Below are positions 1 through 13,510 of a stretch of 64,000 nt of DNA, piece by piece. Made by a program: the position numbers and the translations under genes. A model generated the notes under the pieces. It searched no databases. It was not told the origin of the DNA and saw nothing but the letters and a program-made list of their open reading frames with translations. The first letter of the stretch is position 1, and each line of letters opens with the position of its first letter. This stretch comes from an uncultured Poribacteria bacterium (GTDB lineage Bacteria; Poribacteria; WGA-4E; WGA-3G): contig OX638351.1 in assembly GCA_951813565.1 (NCBI GenBank), positions 352,001-416,000 on the forward strand, given 5' to 3'.

Positions 1-494
1 GGCAATTCAAGCATGTTTGCTTCAGCAGGTGTCGCATTTGGCTCCTGTTCCTTGATCTCAGGAAGGTCGCCAACGATAAAGTTTTGCGGGTTGGAGACAC
101 CGTTTGGTGTGATAAGACGTATTTGATGGTTGCCTAAAGGGGCTTCAGGTGCAATTTGGAATGAAATAACTAAGCGAGGATTGTTTGGAATGTTGCCAGA
201 AATACCTGATCCATTAAAACGGACTCTTGCTGCTGGAGATTTTTTCTTTATTTTTGCTGTGATTCCTTCCTTACTAAACCATATCTCAGCATTCTCGTTG
301 ATGTTTTTGCCTTCAAGTGTAATATCAATGGTTTGTCCGCGCTGTGCTGCGCGAGGTGAAACACTTGTCAGCTGCGGTGCGACCTGTGCATGTGCTAAAC
401 CTACAATAAAAAAAAGAGACAGAACTCCTTGAATTAGAAAATTTTGACGTTTGTGTCCTGTTTTTGTTTGTTTACAAAATAGTGTATCAGGCAT
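1..494 (-). CDS. Secreted PPC/IPT-like domain protein typical of DUF1501-DUF1549 clusters (3' end beyond window)
   Basis: Not in ORF track; manual translation from ATG at 494 (RBS GAGG upstream): MPDTLF...FFIVGLAHAQVAPQLTSVSPRAAQRGQTIDITLEGKN...GVSNPQNFIVGDLPEIKEQEPNATPAEA, open to window edge. Confidence 0.8.
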   Translation of the reverse strand, partial: MPDTLFCKQTKTGHKRQNFLIQGVLSLFFIVGLAHAQVAPQLTSVSPRAAQRGQTIDITLEGKNINENAEIWFSKEGITAKIKKKSPAARVRFNGSGISGNIPNNPRLVISFQIAPEAPLGNHQIRLITPNGVSNPQNFIVGDLPEIKEQEPNATPAEANMLEL

Positions 495-958: not shown

Positions 959-2407
959 TTAGAATATCCCTGTAATCACTTCGCCTTTGACCAATTCACG
1001 TGGTTGGTCTAAGTGGTTCATTACGATTGTGTGCGGGTCAATACCGAGCGTATGGTAAATCGTAGCGAGGATATCCCGCGGATGCACCGGATTTTCAAGT
1101 GGTGTTGAACCTGTTGCATCAGACTTACCGTAAACCTGACCACCTTTGACACCAGCACCAGCGATTAAACCGGTATAGCAATACGGCCAGTGATCACGAC
1201 CATCAGGCGCGTTTCCGTTTCCTGATGTGCTAATACCCATACGAGGTGAGCGACCAAATTCACCAATAGCGAGCACAAGCGTTTCCTCTAACATACCCTT
1301 CTGATCTAAATCTTCGAGCAGTGAAGAAACTGCACTATCTAACTTGGGACAGTGAAGGTTTTTCAGCGGACCGAAGTTGGCTGCGTGGGTATCCCATGCC
1401 GTAGTATTTGGGTTGCCGTTCGCAACAGAAGGCCAGTTCACCTGTACAAATCGTGTGCCAGCTTCAACCAATCGACGTGCAAGAAGTGCACTCTGACCAA
1501 ATGTATGGCGACCATATTTGTCACGCATTTCATCAGCCTCCTGCGACAAATCAAACGCATTACGTGCTTTCTGTGACAAGATGAGGTCATACGCTTTTTC
1601 ATAGTATTCGTTCAGTGCGTAGGAATCCGCTACCTTGTCAATTTCAGGCATATTGGCGTTAATCGTTTCAAGAAGCGTTTTCCGCCGCTGTAACCGAGCA
1701 GGTGGAATTTCTGGACGGAGCGTCAAATCATCAAGATTTATCTCCGTATTGGGATCCTGGAAGAGAAAATATGGGTCATACGCTCTACCGAGGAAACCCG
1801 CATTTCCACCTTTACCGATGATACCACTTTCCTGCATTGGACGCGGGAGTTGGACTGCTGCCAACATCGGTTCATCTGGTGGTCTGAACTTGGAAATATG
1901 TGCTGCAGCATTTGGATGATCGGCAGGAGAAGGTGGGTCAAGCTGCCCCGAAGGTGCAACCTTGTCCGGTGTTTCGCCTGTAACCATTTGATACATGGCA
2001 GCGGTGTGATTGAAAAGTCCTGCTGGCGTGTAGCTTACTGAACGGATAAGACATGCTTTATCCATCTGTTTTGCCAAAAGCGGCATTGTCTCTGACAATT
2101 GAATGCCGTCAACATTTGTTGGGATAGGATTAAATTCACCACGGATATTAGAAGGTGCATCTGGCTTTGGATCCCAGATATCAATGTGACTTGGTCCGCC
2201 TTGCAAGAACAGCAAAATGACAGAATTGGCTTTGCCCCAACCGTTTAGAGGCTTCGCGGGGTCAACTGTCGTGCTTGCCTTGGCTTGGAGTGACAATACT
2301 TGTGGTAGGCTAATGCCCAGCATCGCCGCGCCACCTACGCGGAGAAATTCCCTACGTGAGAACCCATCACATAATCTTCCGGGTGCTTGTGGTAACGATA
2401 ACATCAA
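959..2407 (-). CDS. DUF1501 domain protein with Tat-like motif
   Basis: SRREFLRVG, FLQGGPSHIDIWDPKP, ARRLVEAGTRFV, WDTH, GEFGRSP and GRDHWP motifs. Confidence 0.92.
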   Translation of the reverse strand: MMLSLPQAPGRLCDGFSRREFLRVGGAAMLGISLPQVLSLQAKASTTVDPAKPLNGWGKANSVILLFLQGGPSHIDIWDPKPDAPSNIRGEFNPIPTNVDGIQLSETMPLLAKQMDKACLIRSVSYTPAGLFNHTAAMYQMVTGETPDKVAPSGQLDPPSPADHPNAAAHISKFRPPDEPMLAAVQLPRPMQESGIIGKGGNAGFLGRAYDPYFLFQDPNTEINLDDLTLRPEIPPARLQRRKTLLETINANMPEIDKVADSYALNEYYEKAYDLILSQKARNAFDLSQEADEMRDKYGRHTFGQSALLARRLVEAGTRFVQVNWPSVANGNPNTTAWDTHAANFGPLKNLHCPKLDSAVSSLLEDLDQKGMLEETLVLAIGEFGRSPRMGISTSGNGNAPDGRDHWPYCYTGLIAGAGVKGGQVYGKSDATGSTPLENPVHPRDILATIYHTLGIDPHTIVMNHLDQPRELVKGEVITGIF

Positions 2408-2468: not shown

Positions 2469-4958
2469 TTATCGGTTGAATAAGAACGCGGGACTATTAA
2501 TCAGTGCCCACATTAAATCTTGCGCGCCTTCCTCTTTTGATTCAGCCTTTGCAAGATATTCAACTGCTGTCTTATATTCATTTTCTTGCGGTAACCGAGC
2601 AAATGTTGCCAGGTACATCTCTTCAATGAGTGTACGATCATCCTCATTAGCTTTAATGAGTTTAGCAATTCGTCCATTAGGATCAATAATCGCATTTGCA
2701 ACTGTCGGTCCGTTGATAAGGTTCATCGCATGGGCGAGGCTTACTTCTGTTGTTCTTTCACATTCACATGAACTTTCACGTTCTGGACGACCAAACAATT
2801 TCAAAAATCCGTCATCCTTCACTTTGCTGTCCGGTAGTTGAACAGCGCGAAAATCTTTCGGTACACCTTCGAACTTCGGCTGACTTCCCGTAGCAACACC
2901 GATTGCATCTAACAACTGTTCTGCTGTCAAACGTCGTGCGGTTGCATATGAGAAATTAATGGTATCTGCTTTATTCCATTTGTTCGTTTTGATACTCTGT
3001 TGATAGGTTCGGGAACGAGCGATTGTTTTCATGATATGTTTCATGTCAAACCCGCTCTCCACGAAATCTTTTGTCAGCGCATCAAGCAATTCCGGATTGA
3101 CAGGCGGGTTGCTTGTTCTGATATCATCAACCGGTTCAATGATACCGCGTCCCATGAAGTAACTCCATATACGGTTTACACCTGCTTTTGCGAACATCGG
3201 ATTCTCAGAGGATGTGAGCCATTCTGCCAGGGATTCACGTTTATCAGCTGCATCTTTCTTTGTTTCACCAAATGGCACTGATGCATCAACAACCGCTAAA
3301 GTTCGCGGATGCTTCACTGGAGTTGGACTGAAACTTGCGTATACAACCTCTTCACCCGGCAATCGTCCGTTTTTCACTTTAACATCTGAGAAAAATGCCC
3401 CCAATTCATAGTATTGATTCTGGGTCCATACTTCAAACGGATGATCGTGGCATTTGTTACAAGAGAATCGAACGCCAAGGAAAAGTTGAGTCGTATTTTC
3501 CACAGCAGCGGTGTATTCACGCGAGACACGGAAATAATTTGCTGCTGGATTAGCATAAGCACTACCAGTAGCAGTAATCAGGTCATGCACGAATTGGTTA
3601 TATGGACGATTTTCTGCAATTGACTCCTGTATCCACTGCTGGAAAAGCCACATGCCGCGTTCACCGAGGAATTTACGGTTCGACTGCAACAAGTCACCCC
3701 ATTTATGTGTCCAATGGTCAACAAATTCGGGGGTTTCAGCCAATACATCAATCAATTTTTCCCGTTTTTCCTTAGACGGTGTTTCATCCATAAGGAAACT
3801 TCGCACCTTTTCTGGTCCTGGCGGAAGCCCTGTCATATCAAAGTAAATACGGCGAACAAACTCTTCATCTGTGCATAGTTCAGATGGCAAAATCTTCAAC
3901 CGTTTCAGTTTGTTATGGACATGTGTATCAATGTAGTTGTATTCTGGCGTTTCAACCCATTCGAAACCACTTCTGTCACCCATAACGATGATACCGTTCG
4001 TGCTATAGGCACCCTCATATCGGGTTAGGATAGCAGTTTCACCACGACGTTCCGCTGTTACGACACCTTCATCAGTTACTTTCGCGACCTCATTCACACT
4101 ACTGGTGAATTTTGCTTCACGGGTAACATCGCGTGTTGTTCCATCAGGATAGTGCGCAATAACTATCAACTGCTGCTTATTTCCGGGCATAGACAATTCC
4201 GCGGATCCTGGAATCACCTCTAACCTTTCAACTCGCTGCGTTGTTTCCACGTCAGATGCTACACCTTCACTTATCCACTGATGGATAAGTTTGTAATCAC
4301 GCGTACCTGGGGCGATCACCTGTCCGCCTTTGTGTGGAACCTCCGATGTCGTTTTGAGCAGCATCAGACTCTGTTCGGGAAATGCACGATTGAAGCGGCG
4401 ACCAGATATATCTTCAATCAGAAGTTCGTAATCAAATTCTGGATCGTATCCGCGAAGTGAGAGTTTAAAACCGTTTTTACCTTTTGCAGCGCCGTGGCAC
4501 GTGCCGTTATTGCAACCTGCATGGCTCAAGATTGGCATCACATCTCGCACAAAACTCACTGGCGGTGCATCAATGCTCTTGATGGTTACAGGTAATTCTA
4601 TGCTGACATTCTTGACTGTAACCTTAATCGCTGCAGTTCCAACTGAATTCGGAAAGATGTAACCATCTTCATGCACTTTTACCCCTTCTGATGTAGGTTT
4701 TAGCACTGCCCAAGACGACACATCGACCCAATTTCCATCTTTCGTTTGCCCCGAAACAAGCACACGGCGACCATCGCGCGCATGTTCCAAAGTTAGCGAC
4801 TCAGGGTGAGTTTTTAACGCTTTAATCTCGGGAATATCTACACTCGGTGCGGTCTCCTCCATCTGACTCCAGCTTGAATACTGAAACATTAAACAGCAGG
4901 AGAATGCGATAAGGAGTGTAGCAACCAAGTTATAACTGAGTTTCACATTAACCTCCAT
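2469..4958 (-). CDS. DUF1549/DUF1553 domain protein with Ig-like domains
   Basis: SFVRDVMPIL..GCNNGTCHG, CNKCHDHP, VNRIWSYFMGRGIIEPVDD, CECER, C-terminal WALINSPAFLFNR. Confidence 0.92.
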   Translation of the reverse strand: MEVNVKLSYNLVATLLIAFSCCLMFQYSSWSQMEETAPSVDIPEIKALKTHPESLTLEHARDGRRVLVSGQTKDGNWVDVSSWAVLKPTSEGVKVHEDGYIFPNSVGTAAIKVTVKNVSIELPVTIKSIDAPPVSFVRDVMPILSHAGCNNGTCHGAAKGKNGFKLSLRGYDPEFDYELLIEDISGRRFNRAFPEQSLMLLKTTSEVPHKGGQVIAPGTRDYKLIHQWISEGVASDVETTQRVERLEVIPGSAELSMPGNKQQLIVIAHYPDGTTRDVTREAKFTSSVNEVAKVTDEGVVTAERRGETAILTRYEGAYSTNGIIVMGDRSGFEWVETPEYNYIDTHVHNKLKRLKILPSELCTDEEFVRRIYFDMTGLPPGPEKVRSFLMDETPSKEKREKLIDVLAETPEFVDHWTHKWGDLLQSNRKFLGERGMWLFQQWIQESIAENRPYNQFVHDLITATGSAYANPAANYFRVSREYTAAVENTTQLFLGVRFSCNKCHDHPFEVWTQNQYYELGAFFSDVKVKNGRLPGEEVVYASFSPTPVKHPRTLAVVDASVPFGETKKDAADKRESLAEWLTSSENPMFAKAGVNRIWSYFMGRGIIEPVDDIRTSNPPVNPELLDALTKDFVESGFDMKHIMKTIARSRTYQQSIKTNKWNKADTINFSYATARRLTAEQLLDAIGVATGSQPKFEGVPKDFRAVQLPDSKVKDDGFLKLFGRPERESSCECERTTEVSLAHAMNLINGPTVANAIIDPNGRIAKLIKANEDDRTLIEEMYLATFARLPQENEYKTAVEYLAKAESKEEGAQDLMWALINSPAFLFNR

Positions 4959-5030: not shown

Positions 5031-5849
5031 CTACCTCTGATTTTTTAAATGTCCCCAGGCTACCGGCAACTTGCCGTATGAGGATACATCTAAATATGCT
5101 GATTCACTTGCTAACCAATTTATAACATTTTCTGTGAGTTGTTCTAACTGGTCAATACTTTTGTTATTCGCATGGTAATTTGGAAGCCGCCAATTCATAT
5201 TAAACACTTTGCCGTCTCCTGCTTCCCAATAACCGAAAGCTGCAACCTTATCGCCCCAATCGTTCGCTGGAGGCCCCCAAGTGTTCGCGAGCGTAATAAA
5301 ATTTTTCCAAAGATCGTAGTAGTCACCGCTTTTTGGAAACCCAGTTGAATTAACCTGAATCCTATCACCAACTTCGGGGGTATCACCATCAATATTTTTT
5401 AGTTCTTTAACCAAGTCATGGTCAAGTGTTTCCTGGAGCACGGTAATGCCTACATTTTGTCCATCATCTGCTTCGGGACCGAATTGACGTGCTTCAGCAT
5501 CCTCCAATCCCATCGGTGTAGCATATCGGATAGCCCAACCTGTCAAAAGGACAGCACCACCACTTTCTGCGTAGTCCAAGAACGCGTCAATTTCTGCATT
5601 GGACAATGCTCCAGGGTCGGTATCCCCTTCGTGCCACCATACAACGGCAAACTTTTTGAATTTATCACTCTTTATGTCACCTTTTCCCAATACCGTTGTA
5701 CTAAATGTGGCTTTAGCAAATTCCAGTGCAGGTTTCGTAAATGGACCGTTATCACCCAGATAGAGAAAACCTACCTCAATTGCAGCATTTCCTATATTTA
5801 AACCACATATTAGCATAAAAGTCAAGCAAAATACAAATTTTCGGGACAT
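5031..5849 (-). CDS. Secreted protein, probable class I glutamine amidotransferase-like fold, with C-terminal GKLxxxWGxLK tail
   Basis: Signal peptide; VVWWH and YAESGGAVLLTG motifs; tail AYLDVSSYGKLPVAWGHLKNQR. Confidence 0.7.
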   Translation of the reverse strand: MSRKFVFCLTFMLICGLNIGNAAIEVGFLYLGDNGPFTKPALEFAKATFSTTVLGKGDIKSDKFKKFAVVWWHEGDTDPGALSNAEIDAFLDYAESGGAVLLTGWAIRYATPMGLEDAEARQFGPEADDGQNVGITVLQETLDHDLVKELKNIDGDTPEVGDRIQVNSTGFPKSGDYYDLWKNFITLANTWGPPANDWGDKVAAFGYWEAGDGKVFNMNWRLPNYHANNKSIDQLEQLTENVINWLASESAYLDVSSYGKLPVAWGHLKNQR

Positions 5850-5949
5850 TTTTCCTCCTAATTACGACAAACTTTCGTTTGTTTCATCTGGGAGATTCTC
5901 ATTTCGGATTGAAATGTGCAGAATGTCGTGTAGCATTCTGCATGTTAGG

Positions 5950-6330
5950 TTATTCAGACACTACTAAAAAAAGCGCAACCACCGCAACTACAAAACTCGA
6001 AATTGCCAAAATAGTTCCAACTGTGTCGTTATTTGATGGGTAGTGCGAAGATGTTTCAGATGATGAAGGTAGAATAACTTTATTAATAGACGAGGAACTT
6101 GTAGAAACCGTTGTCCGAACTTTACGAACAAGCCGCATCTCCATGATGCCGGTATTCGGGTTTTCTACCAACTTCCATTCTTCCACAGTTGTATCTGATC
6201 CAACTATTGGTCCTTGTTCCGTAGAAATTGTATGTGTTGCCCCTGAACAACCGTAAAGGAATATTAAGGCAAAAACAATACCTATGCAATAACAAACTGA
6301 TAAAACGCTACTGTGTCTGATCTTTTTCAT
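5950..6330 (-). CDS. Hypothetical lipoprotein with C-terminal TM helix
   Basis: MKKIRH start, lipobox LYGC, Ser-rich linker, hydrophobic C-terminus. Confidence 0.6.
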   Translation of the reverse strand: MKKIRHSSVLSVCYCIGIVFALIFLYGCSGATHTISTEQGPIVGSDTTVEEWKLVENPNTGIMEMRLVRKVRTTVSTSSSSINKVILPSSSETSSHYPSNNDTVGTILAISSFVVAVVALFLVVSE

Positions 6331-6476
6331 GTTATTACTCCCGTTTCGAATTGCTTCTCGCAAAATGTTGTTGGTATATCACAATATATCAAGAATGTTT
6401 CAAAGAGAATTGGTTCATATTATTAATTATCACACTTTATACGAAAATGGGCAACTAATTTCTGAGATAGACTCTA

Positions 6477-7943
6477 TTACATCGGTCCTACGCGTTCAGG
6501 GCCCCTGTCTATAGCAAACATAGACGCATCAAAATTTCTTTTTAACAAATCTAATTTAGTCTTTTGCTTTTCTTGTGTGTGCCAAAGATTGTTGAACTCA
6601 TCAGGGTCATCAACTAAATCGTAAAGTTCTCCTGCTTCATGTCCGTGATAAACTATTAACTTATAACGCTTATCTCGGTACATTGTTGCGAATGTCCGGT
6701 CACGCATACCAAGTGCATCGTAATATTCACATCGGACGAAGTCCCGATGCTGGTTTGCATCTGATTCGCCTCGGAGGATAGATAATAATGATCGTCCGTG
6801 CATCTGCTCAGGAACAGGCAAGCCCGCTAATTCCAACAGTGTCGGAACTTTGTCAACAAGTTCAACGAGCGCATCACTTTTTAAACCGCTTTCAAAATGC
6901 CCTTGCCACGAGAAAATCAACGGCACTCTGACCAATCCTTCATAAAACCGACATCCTTTTTGTATCAGTCCGTGATCGCCAAGCATCTCGCCATGGTCGC
7001 TTGTGAAGATGATAACGGTGTTTTCACGTTGTCCTGTTTCGTTGAGCACTTCCAGAATTCGACCTAACTGATCGTCAATCAGTTTTATCATTGCATAATA
7101 TGCGGCTTTAAGCGTCTTAGCATCCCTTTCACCCACAATCTCAACTTTGGTTTTACTGCGCGGTGATTGCGCTAAGATCGGATTCCGAATGTCCAATTCA
7201 TCTGGTGTTTGGACTTTCGACTGAAAATCAATCTGACGCAACTTGTGCTGCTGTTCTAAATCACTCTCCTTAAAAAGCGGTTCGGGCATATCCGTTGGAT
7301 TAAACTGTTCCCTATATGACTGCGGCGGATTAAACGGTGGATGCGGGTCATAGATATTGACACTCGTAAGCCAAGGTCCGTCCCGTTCTTCGCGAATGAA
7401 TTCAATCGTCTTTTCTGCACACCAAGTCGTTTGGTGTAATTCTGCTGGCACTCCTTCAGGGTTTTTAGTCAACTCACCGAGTATATATCCTTTTGAACGA
7501 ACCCAATCCGCGTAATCGTGACCTTCCTTCCAATCATCTCGTGGTGCATGGCTATATTGCCAATAGCGATAGCCATCGTTGGCACGTGGTTCTATTCGCC
7601 GAAAAGCACTTGCGAGATGTAGTTTTCCAATTAACCCACAATCGTAACCGATGTCTGCAAGTGTGCGCGTTATAAGCGGATATGTCTCTGGAAAATAGTC
7701 GTTGCCGTTACCACTAACATGTGTAGCACTCGGATACATGCCTGTCAAAAAACTTGCACGACTCGGTGTGCATATAGGGCTTTGACAATAAGCGTGTGTA
7801 AATGCTACGCCATCTGCAACCAAACTATCAATGTTTGGTGTAGATACATACGGATTTCCGAGTGCTCCTATCGTGTCGTAACGCTGTTGGTCTGTGCAAA
7901 TCCATAGGATATTCGGAGTTTCAACAGACATCTTTTCTTTCAT
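6477..7943 (-). CDS. Cys-type (formylglycine) sulfatase
   Basis: PNILWICTDQQR, CTPSRASFLTG, GKLH, DPHPP, SDHGEMLGDHG. Confidence 0.95.
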   Translation of the reverse strand: MKEKMSVETPNILWICTDQQRYDTIGALGNPYVSTPNIDSLVADGVAFTHAYCQSPICTPSRASFLTGMYPSATHVSGNGNDYFPETYPLITRTLADIGYDCGLIGKLHLASAFRRIEPRANDGYRYWQYSHAPRDDWKEGHDYADWVRSKGYILGELTKNPEGVPAELHQTTWCAEKTIEFIREERDGPWLTSVNIYDPHPPFNPPQSYREQFNPTDMPEPLFKESDLEQQHKLRQIDFQSKVQTPDELDIRNPILAQSPRSKTKVEIVGERDAKTLKAAYYAMIKLIDDQLGRILEVLNETGQRENTVIIFTSDHGEMLGDHGLIQKGCRFYEGLVRVPLIFSWQGHFESGLKSDALVELVDKVPTLLELAGLPVPEQMHGRSLLSILRGESDANQHRDFVRCEYYDALGMRDRTFATMYRDKRYKLIVYHGHEAGELYDLVDDPDEFNNLWHTQEKQKTKLDLLKRNFDASMFAIDRGPERVGPM

Positions 7944-9539
7944 TTACTTAGCAGTCGCAGTAAATCCTGCAGTTTTAATTACGTCCGCGAGTTCGTCAAC
8001 CTTAACACTGTTTTTCCGAACCTTAATAATTGCTTGGTCGGGTAAAGAAACTTCAGCGCTAATAACGTTTTGGTGCTTTGTAAGTGCATCCTGCACTTTT
8101 GCAACGCAAGCTCCTCACGTCATACCTGTTACTGTTAAAGTTACATCCTCGCTTGCAGTCGTTTCAATTGGCACGGACATGAAGATGTTCAATTGCTTGC
8201 CAGAATTTGCGCCAAATATACGGATTTTTCCGTCGAAACCACCCGTGGCGAGTTGCGTGCCATCGGGGTGAAATGCAAGTGCAAAAACGCCAACGGTGTC
8301 TCCTTGCATAGATAAAAGCCGTTTTCCATCTACTACGTTATAAATTCGTGCTTCCCCTGAAGAACTACCGACAGCAAATTTGCTCCCATCTACTGAAAAC
8401 GCTACCGCATCAATTGAACCCGACTGCGCTTCATAAGCCTTGATGAGATTGAAATCTGTGTTGCCAACGTCCCTACGGGTTTGACGGAACATTCTGTAAA
8501 GTCGCGGAATGCGATCTTCTCCCACGCTCAAAACTTGGTCAGCCTTCGGGTGCCGCGCAATAGCGTTAATTTCTCCGTAACCTTTGTTGCTTGAGTTAAC
8601 ATCATCTACAAACGAACCCGTATCTACTTCAACCAATTTGAGTGCTGTATCACGACTGCAACTGACAAAATGCGAACCGTCAGTAGAAAAAACTGTGCCA
8701 AAAACCCAGTCGCCATGATTGTCAAATCGGACAAGTTCTTTTTCATCTGTGATAGAGATTACGCGCACCGTTTTATCTGAGGTTCCAAAAGCAATACGAC
8801 TGGCATCAGGTGAGAAAGAGAGTCCATAGATCGTATCATAAGTGGAACGAATAGATTTGATAAGTTTATTTGTAGCAGTGTCCCACAACTGAACCTCGCC
8901 AAATTGTGCGGGGGAACCGCCTGCTATACCAAGTATTTTTCCACCATCAGCATATACAATAGATTGAATACGACGCGCTTTTCCAACCAATCGTGCTTTG
9001 AGTGCAAAACTCTTTGAGTCATACAGCAAAACCTCATTGACACCGGACACTGCAAGTGTGCTTCCATCGGGAGAGTAAGCCATAGCAGAAACTACGGGAG
9101 GCACTGTATAACTTGGATATTCTCCGTTTGTTTCGTCTGCTTCTGCAGGTGTATCGTCTTTTGCACCTTCAAGAATCCAACGTGTGAATAGGTTAATTTC
9201 TTCGGCGGTGAGCGGTTCTTGGTTCTGCGGCATTGCAGGCGGGTCACCCGAAATTAGTTCAATAATGAGACTCTCATCCGGTTTGCCAGGGATGATTGCT
9301 TCTCCTGCCATTCCACCTCGCTTGAGTTCAGCATAAGATGTCACTATCAGGTCAGCATTTGGATCACCGGGATGATGGCATCCTTGACAACTCCGTTTGA
9401 GGATCGGGACAATCTGTTTGTGGTAACTCACTGGTTCTTTTTCCCCATGATTGTCTGCCGCTGCAAACGGACTCCACACAACAGAATAGATCAGAAAAAT
9501 CGAGAAAATACATATAAACTTTAATATTGATATTTTCAT
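7944..9539 (-). CDS. Secreted planctomycete-type cytochrome c + WD40 + HMA domain protein; probable selenoprotein (in-frame UGA at 8115-8117), 531 aa
   Basis: Signal peptide, CQGCH, WD40 repeats; frame continues past TGA as VTGMT-U-GACVAKVQDALTKHQNVISAEVSL...DVIKTAGFTATAK to TAA at 7944-7946. Confidence 0.88.
8075..8114 (-). promoter_or_regulatory. Candidate bacterial SECIS element
   Basis: mRNA after UGA: GGAGCUUGCGUUGCAA-AAGUGCA-GGA-UGCACUU-ACAAAGC; perfect 7-bp stem 8082-8098 with G-starting loop about 23 nt after the UGA. Confidence 0.75.
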
Positions 9540-10590: not shown

Positions 10591-11601
10591 ACGTGAGTTT
10601 GATAAATAATTAGAAGTTACATATCATTGGCAACTGATAGTCATTTTCCTGGAGTTCTTTGTGTTTGAGTGAAGGTTTCTTCGTCAGACAGGTATAAGCG
10701 ATCAAGGCAGCAACTGTGTTCACTTGAAAGTTAACAGGACTTCTATGCCGTGTGTGTTGTATTTCTGTCTGAGTTTTGAGTTCTTTATTCACCGACTCAA
10801 TGAGCATCCGTTTTCGTAAAAGTGCTGCATCAGCCTGAGACAAAGGTTCAGGTTTCATGTTCTTACGCACCTTGTAAATGAGTGCCACACCGTCTTCTTG
10901 GAGCCTCTCCCGCAGGTTTTTCGCGATGTATCCTTTATCGGCAAAAACTTTGCCAAAGAGCCCTTGACACAACTGTGGCACGGGTTTCCTGTCATCTACG
11001 TTTCCCGCTGTTACCATAGCTGACAAAAGCTCACCTTGGTCGTTGATGACGAGATGGAGTTTGAAACCATAGAACCACCCCATAGAGGTTTTAGAACGCC
11101 CCGCATCATCAGCGAAGACGCGATGCGTTGAAATCCGACGATTGTGGCAGACCGGGAGAGGCGTTGAGTCTATGAAGGAAATCCCGCGACATTCACCGAA
11201 ACGGGTGTTTAGAAGAATAGACAACGGCACCAATACCTCTTGTGAGAGCTGCACAAAACGGCTATAACTGACAAGGTTTGGAAATGCCCAACGCAACTCG
11301 CAGCAAACATAATCCTGATAATAGGCTCTAAAGTTTTTATACCGCTTCTGATGAAAATGAACCAGTATCGTCATGACTTCGCTCGGATGAAGGCGCCTGG
11401 GTCTGCCGCGTGTATTGCCTGTGCCGAGTATTTCCGGCAACTGGTGTTGTGCTCGATATTGTTCATACAAAAGAAAAAAGTCGTCAATTTCACAGAAAAG
11501 TGTTATCATATCCATCAGAGAACTCCTTTGTGAGTATTTGGTATACTTCATAATAACAAAGGGGTTCTCTATTTACCAGTTTTTAATTATCAAACTCACG
11601 T
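10591..11601 (-). mobile_element. IS982-family insertion sequence
   Basis: Perfect IR ACGTGAGTTTGATAA / TTATCAAACTCACGT around a transposase; no matching target duplication. Confidence 0.9.
10610..11551 (-). CDS. IS982-family DDE transposase (start may be the Met at about 11515)
   Basis: FPNLVSYSRF, IDSTPL, GWFYGFKLHL, ADKGY, RMLIESV motifs. Confidence 0.93.
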   Translation of the reverse strand: MKYTKYSQRSSLMDMITLFCEIDDFFLLYEQYRAQHQLPEILGTGNTRGRPRRLHPSEVMTILVHFHQKRYKNFRAYYQDYVCCELRWAFPNLVSYSRFVQLSQEVLVPLSILLNTRFGECRGISFIDSTPLPVCHNRRISTHRVFADDAGRSKTSMGWFYGFKLHLVINDQGELLSAMVTAGNVDDRKPVPQLCQGLFGKVFADKGYIAKNLRERLQEDGVALIYKVRKNMKPEPLSQADAALLRKRMLIESVNKELKTQTEIQHTRHRSPVNFQVNTVAALIAYTCLTKKPSLKHKELQENDYQLPMICNF

Positions 11602-12502: not shown

Positions 12503-13510
12503 TCACTTTTTTAAGTCCAAATACGTAGGGCTATACTGTCCGGTTTTTACATCATAGAAATGTAGTGTGCCCGCCCGGCTGGCAATGACGAGGCGTTCAC
12601 CGTCTTGTGAGAATTTTACGGCAGAGAGATCATAGGTTTTGCGTCTATCTTTTGTCCTGAGCATTTTCTCTCTGTCTATATACGCAGGAAAACGGCACCG
12701 TAGACTGCGGGTGTTCACGTCCCAGAGCGTGAGTGTCTTGTCCGCGCTGGCTGTAGCGAGCGTGTGTCCATCGGGTGAAAAGGCGATATCGCGGATTTCA
12801 CCCGTGTGGGATTTGAGGGATTTTAGGAGGTTGCCGGTATTCACATCCCAGAGATGCGCTGTGAAGTCCCAGCCGCCGCCAGTCGCAAGGAGTTTGCCAT
12901 CGGGTGAAAAACAGATCCGGTTGATGGAGCCTAAGTCTTTATCGGGGGCGTGTCGTAATTCACCGGTGGTGATATCCCAGATCCGTAAGGTGCCTCCTGC
13001 ACTTGCGAGGGTTTTGCTGTCTGGCGAAAAGGCGAGGGCGTTGACCGCCCCTGGATGTCCTGTGAGACTCCGGATATATTTACCGGTGCTGATCTCCCAT
13101 AAACGAACTGTCCAGGTGCCGTCTGCTGTCGCAAGTTTTTTGCGATCGGGTGAAATGGCGAGTGCTGTAATAGAATCGGGGTATTCCTCAAATATAGCGA
13201 GTGCCTTGCCTGTTGCTGTCTCCGAGACGTAAATGCTTTTTCCGTGGGCACTGGCGAGCATGGATGCGTCCGCGGAGAATGTGAAAACCTCCGATGGGGG
13301 CATTTCACCGGGGGCGGGTGCTGTGAACTGTGAGACGGCATCGCCTGTGTGGGCATCGTGGACCGAGATGCCGTCGGACGTTGACACAGCAACACGGGTG
13401 CCGTTCGGTGAAATGATAATGTTCAAGGGCCCTGCCGTGTCCGAGCGGGAGAGTGGCAGGAACCCTAAGATGAAGATGCATGCGATGTAGAGACGCTCCG
13501 CCTTTTTCAT
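12503..13510 (-). CDS. Secreted WD40-repeat protein
   Basis: Signal peptide plus about 7 GH...FSPDG...WD repeats. Confidence 0.9.
   Translation of the reverse strand: MKKAERLYIACIFILGFLPLSRSDTAGPLNIIISPNGTRVAVSTSDGISVHDAHTGDAVSQFTAPAPGEMPPSEVFTFSADASMLASAHGKSIYVSETATGKALAIFEEYPDSITALAISPDRKKLATADGTWTVRLWEISTGKYIRSLTGHPGAVNALAFSPDSKTLASAGGTLRIWDITTGELRHAPDKDLGSINRICFSPDGKLLATGGGWDFTAHLWDVNTGNLLKSLKSHTGEIRDIAFSPDGHTLATASADKTLTLWDVNTRSLRCRFPAYIDREKMLRTKDRRKTYDLSAVKFSQDGERLVIASRAGTLHFYDVKTGQYSPTYLDLKK

Follow-up and report, generated by a model that had tools for sequence, protein, structure and literature searches.

A predicted selenocysteine in the putative metal-binding loop of an apparently exported cytochrome c-WD40-HMA protein of Poribacteria

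Does a TGA codon near the end of a cytochrome gene of sponge-symbiont type, from an uncultured Poribacteria bacterium, terminate the protein, or does it encode selenocysteine (Sec)? The gene lies on the minus strand of a 64,000-nucleotide stretch of DNA (the window; contig OX638351.1, positions 352,001 to 416,000). Its open reading frame (ORF) starts with an ATG at 9539 and runs through VTLTVTGMT to a TGA at 8117-8115. The same frame then continues for 56 sense codons, GACVAKVQDALTKHQNVISAEVSLPDQAIIKVRKNSVKVDELADVIKTAGFTATAK, to a TAA at 7946-7944, which is directly abutted by the ATG of a sulfatase gene (7943-7941). An earlier note on this DNA had described this extended frame and proposed that the UGA encodes Sec in a protein truncated by standard annotation; the frame was recovered as described when the coordinates were re-read on the minus strand. 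On read-through, the product would consist, in order, of a signal peptide, a PSCyt1 haem-c domain, a seven-bladed WD40 propeller and an HMA domain with the motif GMT-U-GAC, the TGA coinciding exactly with the position of the first Cys in the GMTCxxC metal loop. The best overall explanation, which the comparisons below support with good confidence, is that this is a real selenoprotein gene for an exported haem-c/WD40 protein with a Sec-containing HMA (Sec-HMA) metal site.

Conservation and predicted decoding of the in-frame TGA

The predicted truncation was evident in public records. When the best matches were drawn from a collection of 5.8 billion proteins, 120 of the 120 gene calls ended at the TGA, giving proteins of 446-494 residues that covered at most 89% of the query. 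Where names were given, these were 'hypothetical protein [Candidatus Poribacteria bacterium]' or 'WD40 repeat protein'. As every one of these 120 best calls stops at the UGA, public records show this conserved protein, which belongs to an entire uncultured phylum, in shortened form, and the putative metal site is hidden from database users. The 501 bases from 7900 to 8400 recurred without a single difference in contigs from four public runs, which belong to four studies (depth, 18-93); one of these runs may be the source of this assembly. It is impossible for the TGA to be an assembly error, because the codon is conserved across relatives.

This conservation was examined in orthologs detected at a threshold of E <= 1e-90, which were present in 133 of 176 genomes of the phylum. 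Within the same genus, a full-length ortholog carrying exactly one TGA was present in 23 of the 24 other genomes, at 78-93% identity; the remaining genome is a 300-contig assembly. Thirty loci were extracted and read codon by codon. Every one of the 24 genus copies had the TGA at the same place, within the motif GM[TM]-U-xx-C, as did 3 copies from another family with 54-56% identity; one copy (60% identity) had TGC, and two ended after the propeller. Altogether, codon reading confirmed the TGA in 31 copies from the window's family and 5 from other families. A count of stops across the 133 orthologs detected one TGA, with alignment to the end of the protein, in 113 genomes (110 of the 112 in the window's family and three others), and codon reading added two more U tails (G030 and G036). 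Nine of the 133 orthologs were full length without a stop; the five of these that were read all had Cys (GMTCGAC, GMSCGAC or GMTCDAC). A further nine lacked the HMA tail. The homolog alignment suggested in the earlier note thus placed a TGA at the same codon down to 54% identity, with Cys alternates (TGC or TGT) in a minority lineage.

A tree of the cytochrome-propeller body (37 rows) required at least five changes among the Sec, Cys and no-tail states; because this tree was only midpoint rooted, no direction of Sec/Cys change is claimed. Loss of the Sec trait was rejected as the cause of the Cys forms, selA being present in 4 of 5 Cys-form genomes and 5 of 5 Sec-form genomes tested; the fifth Cys-form genome is a 730-contig assembly with a fragment at a contig end. 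The Sec-HMA tail would seem to be an optional accessory that most Poribacteria have in the Sec form and one lineage in the Cys form, and that others lack. One ortholog (L068; G064:C1:396065-398888) carried two tandem HMA domains at ∼1860-2132, with GMTUGAC twice; a separate TGA and a separate GTGCAGGTCGCAC hairpin went with each domain, which would make this ortholog a two-selenocysteine variant.

Selection was measured on 23 genus sequences (253 pairs), after a single 5'-truncated copy had been left out. The ratio of nonsynonymous to synonymous substitution rates (dN/dS) was 0.070 upstream of the TGA, 0.123 over the 56-codon tail downstream and 0.104 downstream when the codons of a hairpin-forming segment were omitted. 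The low ratio of the tail indicated purifying selection and hence that the tail is translated. Furthermore, the hairpin codons K-V-Q-D-A-L-T (+6 to +12) ranked first of 459 seven-codon windows for low synonymous variation, with a mean synonymous entropy of 0.076 against a gene mean of 1.03 and a synonymous rate (dS) of 0.088 against 1.3-1.6 elsewhere. Such a synonymous freeze is the signature predicted for an RNA element that overlaps a coding sequence where a bacterial selenocysteine insertion sequence (SECIS) is expected.

The genome carrying the window (one contig of 5.43 Mb, 95% complete) was searched for the Sec machinery, and the complete set of selA, selB, selC and selD was found above curated cut-offs. 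The tRNA-Sec scored 78 bits against a cut-off of 47, with a tca anticodon assigned by ARAGORN, and was adjoined by selB (344 bits); selA scored 607 bits. The selD gene (372 bits) had one in-frame TGA of its own (…VKCAG-U-ASK…; L019, G000:C1:4610940-4611866, minus strand). Two other frames in this genome may be selenoprotein genes: an oxidoreductase-like frame of the flavin adenine dinucleotide type at G000:C1:1322712-1323392 (plus strand), with one TGA and a weak match to the MerA model (72.7 bits), and a frame at G000:C1:679517 (plus strand) with a TGCAGG..GCAC core 23 nucleotides (nt) after its TGA. The proposal that the UGA encodes Sec was supported by this machinery, the conserved TGA, the Cys homologs, purifying selection and the constraint on the hairpin codons, and codon 475 is very probably decoded as Sec. 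SelB with Sec-tRNA(Sec) would bind the hairpin (GUGCA-GGN-UGCAC, with a G in the loop) 16 nt downstream, and Sec would be inserted at this codon.

A SECIS-like hairpin downstream of the TGA

The perfect hairpin that the earlier note had placed 16 nt after the UGA was located at that distance, and its likeness to the core of the Escherichia coli fdhF element held on the real K-12 sequence (NC_000913.3). In fdhF the TGA is followed by 11 nt and then GGTTGCAGGTCTGCACC, and TGCAGG...TGCAC is common to both. As in fdhF, the hairpin stands just 3' of the UGA and has a G in its apical loop. The two differ in spacing and loop size: the fdhF hairpin starts 11 nt from the UGA with a loop of 4 nt (GGUC), and the window hairpin 16 nt from it with a loop of 3 nt. 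In the fdhF SECIS the lower stem is long and a U is bulged; no conserved lower stem accompanies the window hairpin.

The hairpin was compared across 38 aligned Sec sites (36 distinct ortholog sites and two paralogs), in which 96.2% of the stem cells were paired. The loop bases GG (GUGCA-GG-N) were present in 36 of 36 distinct ortholog Sec sites, and codon +9 is therefore always GNN (Asp, Gly, Ala or Val). In the Cys forms, the second loop position was an A in 5/5, giving ANN codons (Asn, Thr or Ser), and GCG replaced GCA in the 3' arm, also in 5/5. The loop G is tied to Sec forms only. This loop difference, the synonymous freeze and the likeness to fdhF all favour a functional hairpin. Only 13 occurrences of a TGCAGG-N1-2-YGCRC core were detected on both strands of the 5.43-Mb genome, and two of these were spaced exactly 19 nt downstream of the in-frame TGA at GMT-U-xx-C sites.

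Several observations weigh against the interpretation of this gene as one for a Sec-HMA metal protein. A scan of 7900-8300 against Rfam at E <= 10 returned no SECIS family and only a chance match to a long noncoding RNA. The minimum free energy of the hairpin was -12.5 kcal/mol (z = -0.69), and 45 of 200 shuffled sequences folded as well. The covariation score was reached in 76 of 500 shuffles, with one compensatory A-U to G-C cell; covariation was no better than in shuffles because the stem is almost invariant. Conservation of the hairpin could stem partly from the conserved peptide KVQDAL. The distance from the UGA to TGCAGG was 19 nt here and 14 nt in fdhF, and no similar hairpin followed the UGA of the genome's own selD. 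The public runs carrying the stretch include no RNA run. The presence of selA does not account for the choice between Sec and Cys, as most Cys-form genomes keep it. Finally, the tail fell below the NCBIfam cut-offs for CopZ (NF033795; 37.1 against 91 bits) and MerP (TIGR02052; 31.4 against 92.55 bits), and against the UxxU_metal_bind model (NF041115), with a cut-off of 95, the full protein scored 35.6 bits and the tail by itself 41. As no curated NCBIfam cut-off was reached, the metal is not assignable.

Domain structure and the predicted metal site

The calls of haem c, WD40 and HMA domains made in the earlier note were confirmed by Pfam and by a fold model (Table 1). The AlphaFold2 model, built on 37 orthologs, had a mean confidence (pLDDT) of 85.1 and a predicted template-modelling score (pTM) of 0.68. 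The N-terminus looks like a signal peptide by which the 531-residue protein would be exported. Within PSCyt1, the haem motif C51-Q-G-C54-H55 (9375-9389) was followed by M103, and C51, C54, H55 and M103 were all invariant in the alignment of 37 orthologs. Cytochrome c assembly genes were present in the genome, and one c-type haem is likely to be carried on CQGCH with Met103 as the distal ligand. The best Foldseek matches of the model were seven-bladed WD40 propellers, with template-modelling scores up to 0.91 on the target. For the whole model, the Foldseek search against the PDB returned generic propellers of this kind only, with no cytochrome-propeller or HMA-specific analogue. The HMA match to Pfam PF00403, with U read as C, covered residues 467-526 (35.6 bits against a cut-off of 24.8), and the model placed strands at 463-471, 492-498, 502-508 and 527-530 and helices at 476-487 and 514-523. 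In this model U475 is in the beta1-alpha1 loop, between strand 1 and helix 1, and U475 and C478 lie at the junction of loop and helix.

Table 1. Positions of the selenoprotein gene, its elements and associated genes (window coordinates unless a locus is named)
Feature	Position	Strand	Basis
Full selenoprotein coding sequence, 531 residues, U at residue 475 (predicted)	7944..9539	-	Translation with TGA = U; full-length orthologs with one TGA
In-frame TGA, predicted Sec codon 475, first ligand of GMT-U-G-A-C	8115..8117	-	Codon conserved in orthologs
TGC, Cys478, second residue of UxxC site	8106..8108	-	Invariant in all HMA-bearing orthologs read
SECIS-like hairpin AAGUGCA-GGA-UGCACUU, 7-bp stem, 3-nt loop	8082..8098	-	Begins 16 nt after UGA
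Signal-peptide-like N-terminus MKISILKFICIFSIFLIYSVVWSPFAAA, residues 1-28	9456..9539	-	By inspection; model helix at residues 2-21
PSCyt1 (Planctomycete cytochrome c), residues 51-104	9228..9389	-	Pfam PF07635, 35.3 bits against cut-off 22
Seven-bladed WD40 beta-propeller, residues ∼150-460	8160..9092	-	Pfam WD40 families; AlphaFold2 pLDDT mostly >85; Foldseek
HMA domain, residues 463-530	7950..8153	-	Pfam PF00403 and beta-alpha-beta-beta-alpha-beta fold in model
Sulfatase abutting the stop codon	6477..7943	-	Pfam Sulfatase, 172.6 bits; genus-level insertion
Partner gene, 829 residues: Ig-like, CX4CH segment, PSCyt2 (DUF1549) and PSD1 (DUF1553)	2469..4958	-	Pfam
Partner gene DUF1501, 482 residues, twin-arginine motif SRREFLR	959..2407	-	Pfam, 348.8 bits
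Start of fourth conserved gene (PPC/TIG-domain), runs off the window	1..494	-	66% identity to N-terminus of the L060 homolog
Tandem lipoprotein-like Sec-HMA genes (predicted)	L052 1465-1857 and 2035-2451 = G000:C1:4462057-4462800	-	TGA in GMT-U-G-[NS]-C

Four HMA matches were detected in the window's genome, three of them with a TGA. Besides the window protein, these were two tandem lipoprotein-like genes with lipobox-type N-termini and the motifs GMTUGNC and GMTUGSC. Each carried a closely similar AGTGCA-GNN-TGCACT hairpin 17 nt after its TGA, and they probably encode further exported Sec-HMA proteins. The fourth match was the cytoplasmic N-terminus of a P1B-type ATPase, in the Cys form (GMHCEGC). 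On these motifs, all three apparently exported HMA domains are predicted to use Sec, whereas the single cytoplasmic one uses Cys, which provides a natural contrast for asking what advantage selenium gives at a metal site.

The U475-x-x-C478 loop of the C-terminal HMA domain would bind a soft metal ion. The closest solved relatives by sequence were the Cu(I) domains of ATP7B/ATP7A and CopA, followed by CopZ and then by MerP and NmerA. A copper-type soft-metal site is favoured with low confidence, because the nearest of these relatives bind Cu(I) and the genome has no MerA above cut-off and no MerT; copper itself can be named only tentatively, from likeness to Cu-ATPase and CopZ domains.

A serious rival, if a somewhat unlikely one, accepts the decoding of Sec but takes the UxxC pair as a redox selenylsulfide couple that exchanges electrons with the haem, in the manner of a thiol oxidoreductase. 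The tethering of the domain to a c-type cytochrome, the presence of further CxxCH-type motifs in a partner protein (see below) and the apparent export of the three Sec-HMA proteins, with Cys kept in the cytoplasmic HMA, would all suit such a role. The HMA fold and motif are canonical, however (GMTxxxC, ferredoxin-like), the closest solved relatives are all metal binding (ATP7A/B, CopA, CopZ, MerP and NmerA), and the known Sec-HMA families are annotated as metal proteins. These likenesses moderately favour metal binding over a pure redox role.

A second alternative also retains Sec and makes the domain a MerP-like extracytoplasmic trap for Hg(II), exploiting the very high affinity of selenium for mercury, rather than a copper site. 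The tail did weakly match the MerP and MerTP models (31-34 bits), one of the paralogous lipoproteins reached 51.8 bits on the TIGR02052 MerP model and has a MerP-like C-P after the second ligand, and Sec transporter proteins are linked to mercury and arsenic resistance in the review text of PMC13188914. Nevertheless, a canonical mer system was looked for and rejected, the best MerA match being 398 bits against a cut-off of 454, with no MerT in the 95%-complete genome; no mer genes were present in the neighbourhood, and the best solved matches were Cu(I) domains. An Hg(II) trap was therefore considered improbable.

Decoding of the UGA without Sec, by a near-cognate tRNA inserting Trp or Cys or by reassignment in the lineage, appeared very improbable. 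It would be in keeping with the lack of an Rfam SECIS match and with the unremarkable energy and covariation of the hairpin, but the genome has the full Sec machinery, the position is exactly that of a Cys ligand at which homologs carry Cys, and both the synonymous freeze and the loop G go with Sec forms only. Reassignment in the lineage is contradicted by the use of TGA as the true stop after the tail in 4 of the first 30 orthologs read. Least credible of all is that the TGA is a true stop at residue 474, followed by a decaying remnant or a separate small ORF, for although gene callers end the protein there in the 120 best public matches, a 50-residue ORF exists from a GTG at 8096 and nine orthologs function without any HMA tail, the tail has a dN/dS of 0.12 over the 253 pairs, keeps its frame free of further stops in 113 + 2 genomes and is continuous with the protein in Cys-form orthologs, and an ORF from the GTG would miss the HMA fold's first ligand as well as beta-strand 1.

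Gene neighbourhood and relation to known systems

The earlier note had remarked that the TAA abuts the ATG of the sulfatase. The adjacency is real, but the sulfatase is a genus-level insertion, and the conserved partners further downstream had been missed. As a functional partner the sulfatase was rejected: it is downstream in most, not all, same-genus loci and in no locus of another family, and it is absent between the cytochrome-propeller and partner genes in L055-L058 and L060. In the window, the segment from 5031 to 7943 (minus strand) holds the sulfatase and ORFs of 137 and 272 residues, inserted before the conserved partners; the 272-residue ORF has a weak DUF4960 match. These partners directly adjoin the cytochrome-propeller gene in other families and also in one genome of the same genus (L060). 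On the other side, ∼1 kb upstream of the selenoprotein gene, a DDE transposase (DDE_Tnp_1_3, 228.6 bits) occupies 10610-11551 (minus strand) and is followed by a truncated-looking STT3-like ORF and then by a WD40 protein at 12503-13510.

The conserved order comprised the cytochrome-propeller(-HMA) gene, a gene for an Ig-like/PSCyt2/PSD1 protein of ∼830 residues, a DUF1501 gene and a gene for a PPC/TIG protein of ∼780-850 residues. Five of six additional loci, drawn from three families and including the Cys form, kept this order, and the PSCyt2-PSD1 gene came immediately after the cytochrome-propeller gene in 5 of 6 other loci examined. The DUF1501 protein was 81-93% identical across families. 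The L060 version of the fourth protein, a PPC protein, has 837 residues, and relatives of this gene have Pfam PPC/TIG matches. In the PSCyt2-PSD1 protein, C-x4-C-H and C-x2-C-H motifs were invariant. The first lies at residues 149-155 in an invariant G-C-N-A-G-T-C-H-G (CX4CH) segment between Ig-like domains that is unrecognised by Pfam, and the second is C-N-K-C-H at residues 500-504 within PSCyt2; both are possible extra haem sites. The window protein is likely to belong to this four-gene module, which would operate outside the cytoplasm and combine the cytochrome-propeller-HMA protein with the PSCyt2-PSD1 protein and its two further CxxCH-type motifs, a DUF1501 protein exported by the twin-arginine pathway and the PPC/TIG protein.

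The relationship between the first two genes was further examined through other PSCyt2 proteins. In the window's genome, three PSCyt2 proteins have a PSCyt1 domain of their own and four have none, and two of the latter four adjoin a PSCyt1-WD40 gene. One PSCyt1-less PSCyt2 protein stands at G000:C1:2880359-2883140 (minus strand) beside a 456-residue PSCyt1-WD40 paralog that shares 25% identity with the window protein and lacks an HMA tail. Among fused relatives drawn from a library of 1.84 billion representatives, PSCyt1, propeller and PSCyt2 were joined in one chain in 10 of 10 long proteins scanned (995-1957 residues), and PSD1 was also present in 8 of the 10. An HMA domain was found in none of the 19 relatives scanned. 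As the halves are fused elsewhere and are neighbours in 5 of 6 other loci, the window protein appears to be half of a split system; within the window itself, the halves are separated by the 3-kb insertion.

Eight fused proteins (P0138, P0144, P0172, P0193, P0197, P0206, P0216 and P0189) had the order PSCyt1, WD40, PSCyt2 and PSD1. Their N-terminal 450-470 residues are 38-44% identical to the window protein, and their C-terminal part matches the family to which its conserved neighbour belongs. Each is a single polypeptide in which no HMA domain was detected at E <= 1e-6, whereas Poribacteria split the unit in two genes, the first of which ends in the Sec-HMA tail. The tail thus has the appearance of a Poribacteria-specific addition at the split point. 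It is conceivable, if doubtful, that the tail is the metal- or electron-entry point of an extracytoplasmic multi-haem machine formed by the four proteins. If so, the abundant DUF1549/DUF1553/DUF1501 systems would perform metal-linked redox chemistry, for example by oxidising or reducing a bound soft metal via haems, and the selenium ligand would have been added because a selenol outperforms a thiol outside the cytoplasm of an aerobe. To our knowledge, no function has been assigned to DUF1549, DUF1553 or DUF1501. A Sec-HMA tail beside DUF1501, on a split PSCyt1-WD40/PSCyt2-PSD1 system, would provide a testable lead to the function of these families.

Cys-type HMA domains (ATP7B/ATP7A, CopA, CopZ 6ff2, MerP 1afi and NmerA 2kt2) share the fold, the motif and the order of secondary-structure elements with the tail. 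Ligation is Cys-Cys in every solved example, with no fusion to a cytochrome or propeller in any of them. The small proteins described by the NCBIfam models NF041115 ('UxxU_metal_bind') and NF045683 ('MerT/CopZ fusion-like heavy metal transport selenoprotein') likewise have Sec in an HMA-type binding loop. These models were matched by the tail and by both paralogous lipoproteins at E values of 1e-8 to 3e-14, but at 36-53 bits against cut-offs of 95 and 375, with a UxxC in place of a UxxU motif and a different architecture.

The claim of the earlier note that Sec-HMA domains exist elsewhere was borne out by the reviews PMC9312934 and PMC13188914, in which, as in PMC1976440, such domains are tabulated. 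No cytochrome-WD40-HMA protein and no mention of Poribacteria was found in the passages searched of these three sources or in the NCBIfam models; the supplements may differ. Literature on Poribacteria selenoproteins yielded a paper on hydrogenases and none on this protein by title or abstract, although supplements could list the family, and the main text of BSepDB is silent on HMA, heavy metal, copper, WD40, cytochrome c and Poribacteria, although its entries could list it. What is added here is a tally across the phylum of orthologs with Sec, with Cys and without the tail, the association of the loop G with Sec, the ortholog with two predicted Sec residues and the four-gene module with its fusion support.

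In the known Sec-HMA pump domains, as in the window protein, Sec replaces the first Cys of the GMTCxxC loop, and these domains too are known solely from genomic prediction and are cut short or miscalled in databases. The known domains form the cytoplasmic N-terminus of a membrane pump, whereas the domain described here forms the C-terminus of an apparently exported haem-c/WD40 protein, and the P1B ATPase of the window's own genome, unlike these pumps, keeps Cys. Substitution of Sec for Cys at HMA sites would thus extend from cytoplasmic pump domains to exported proteins.

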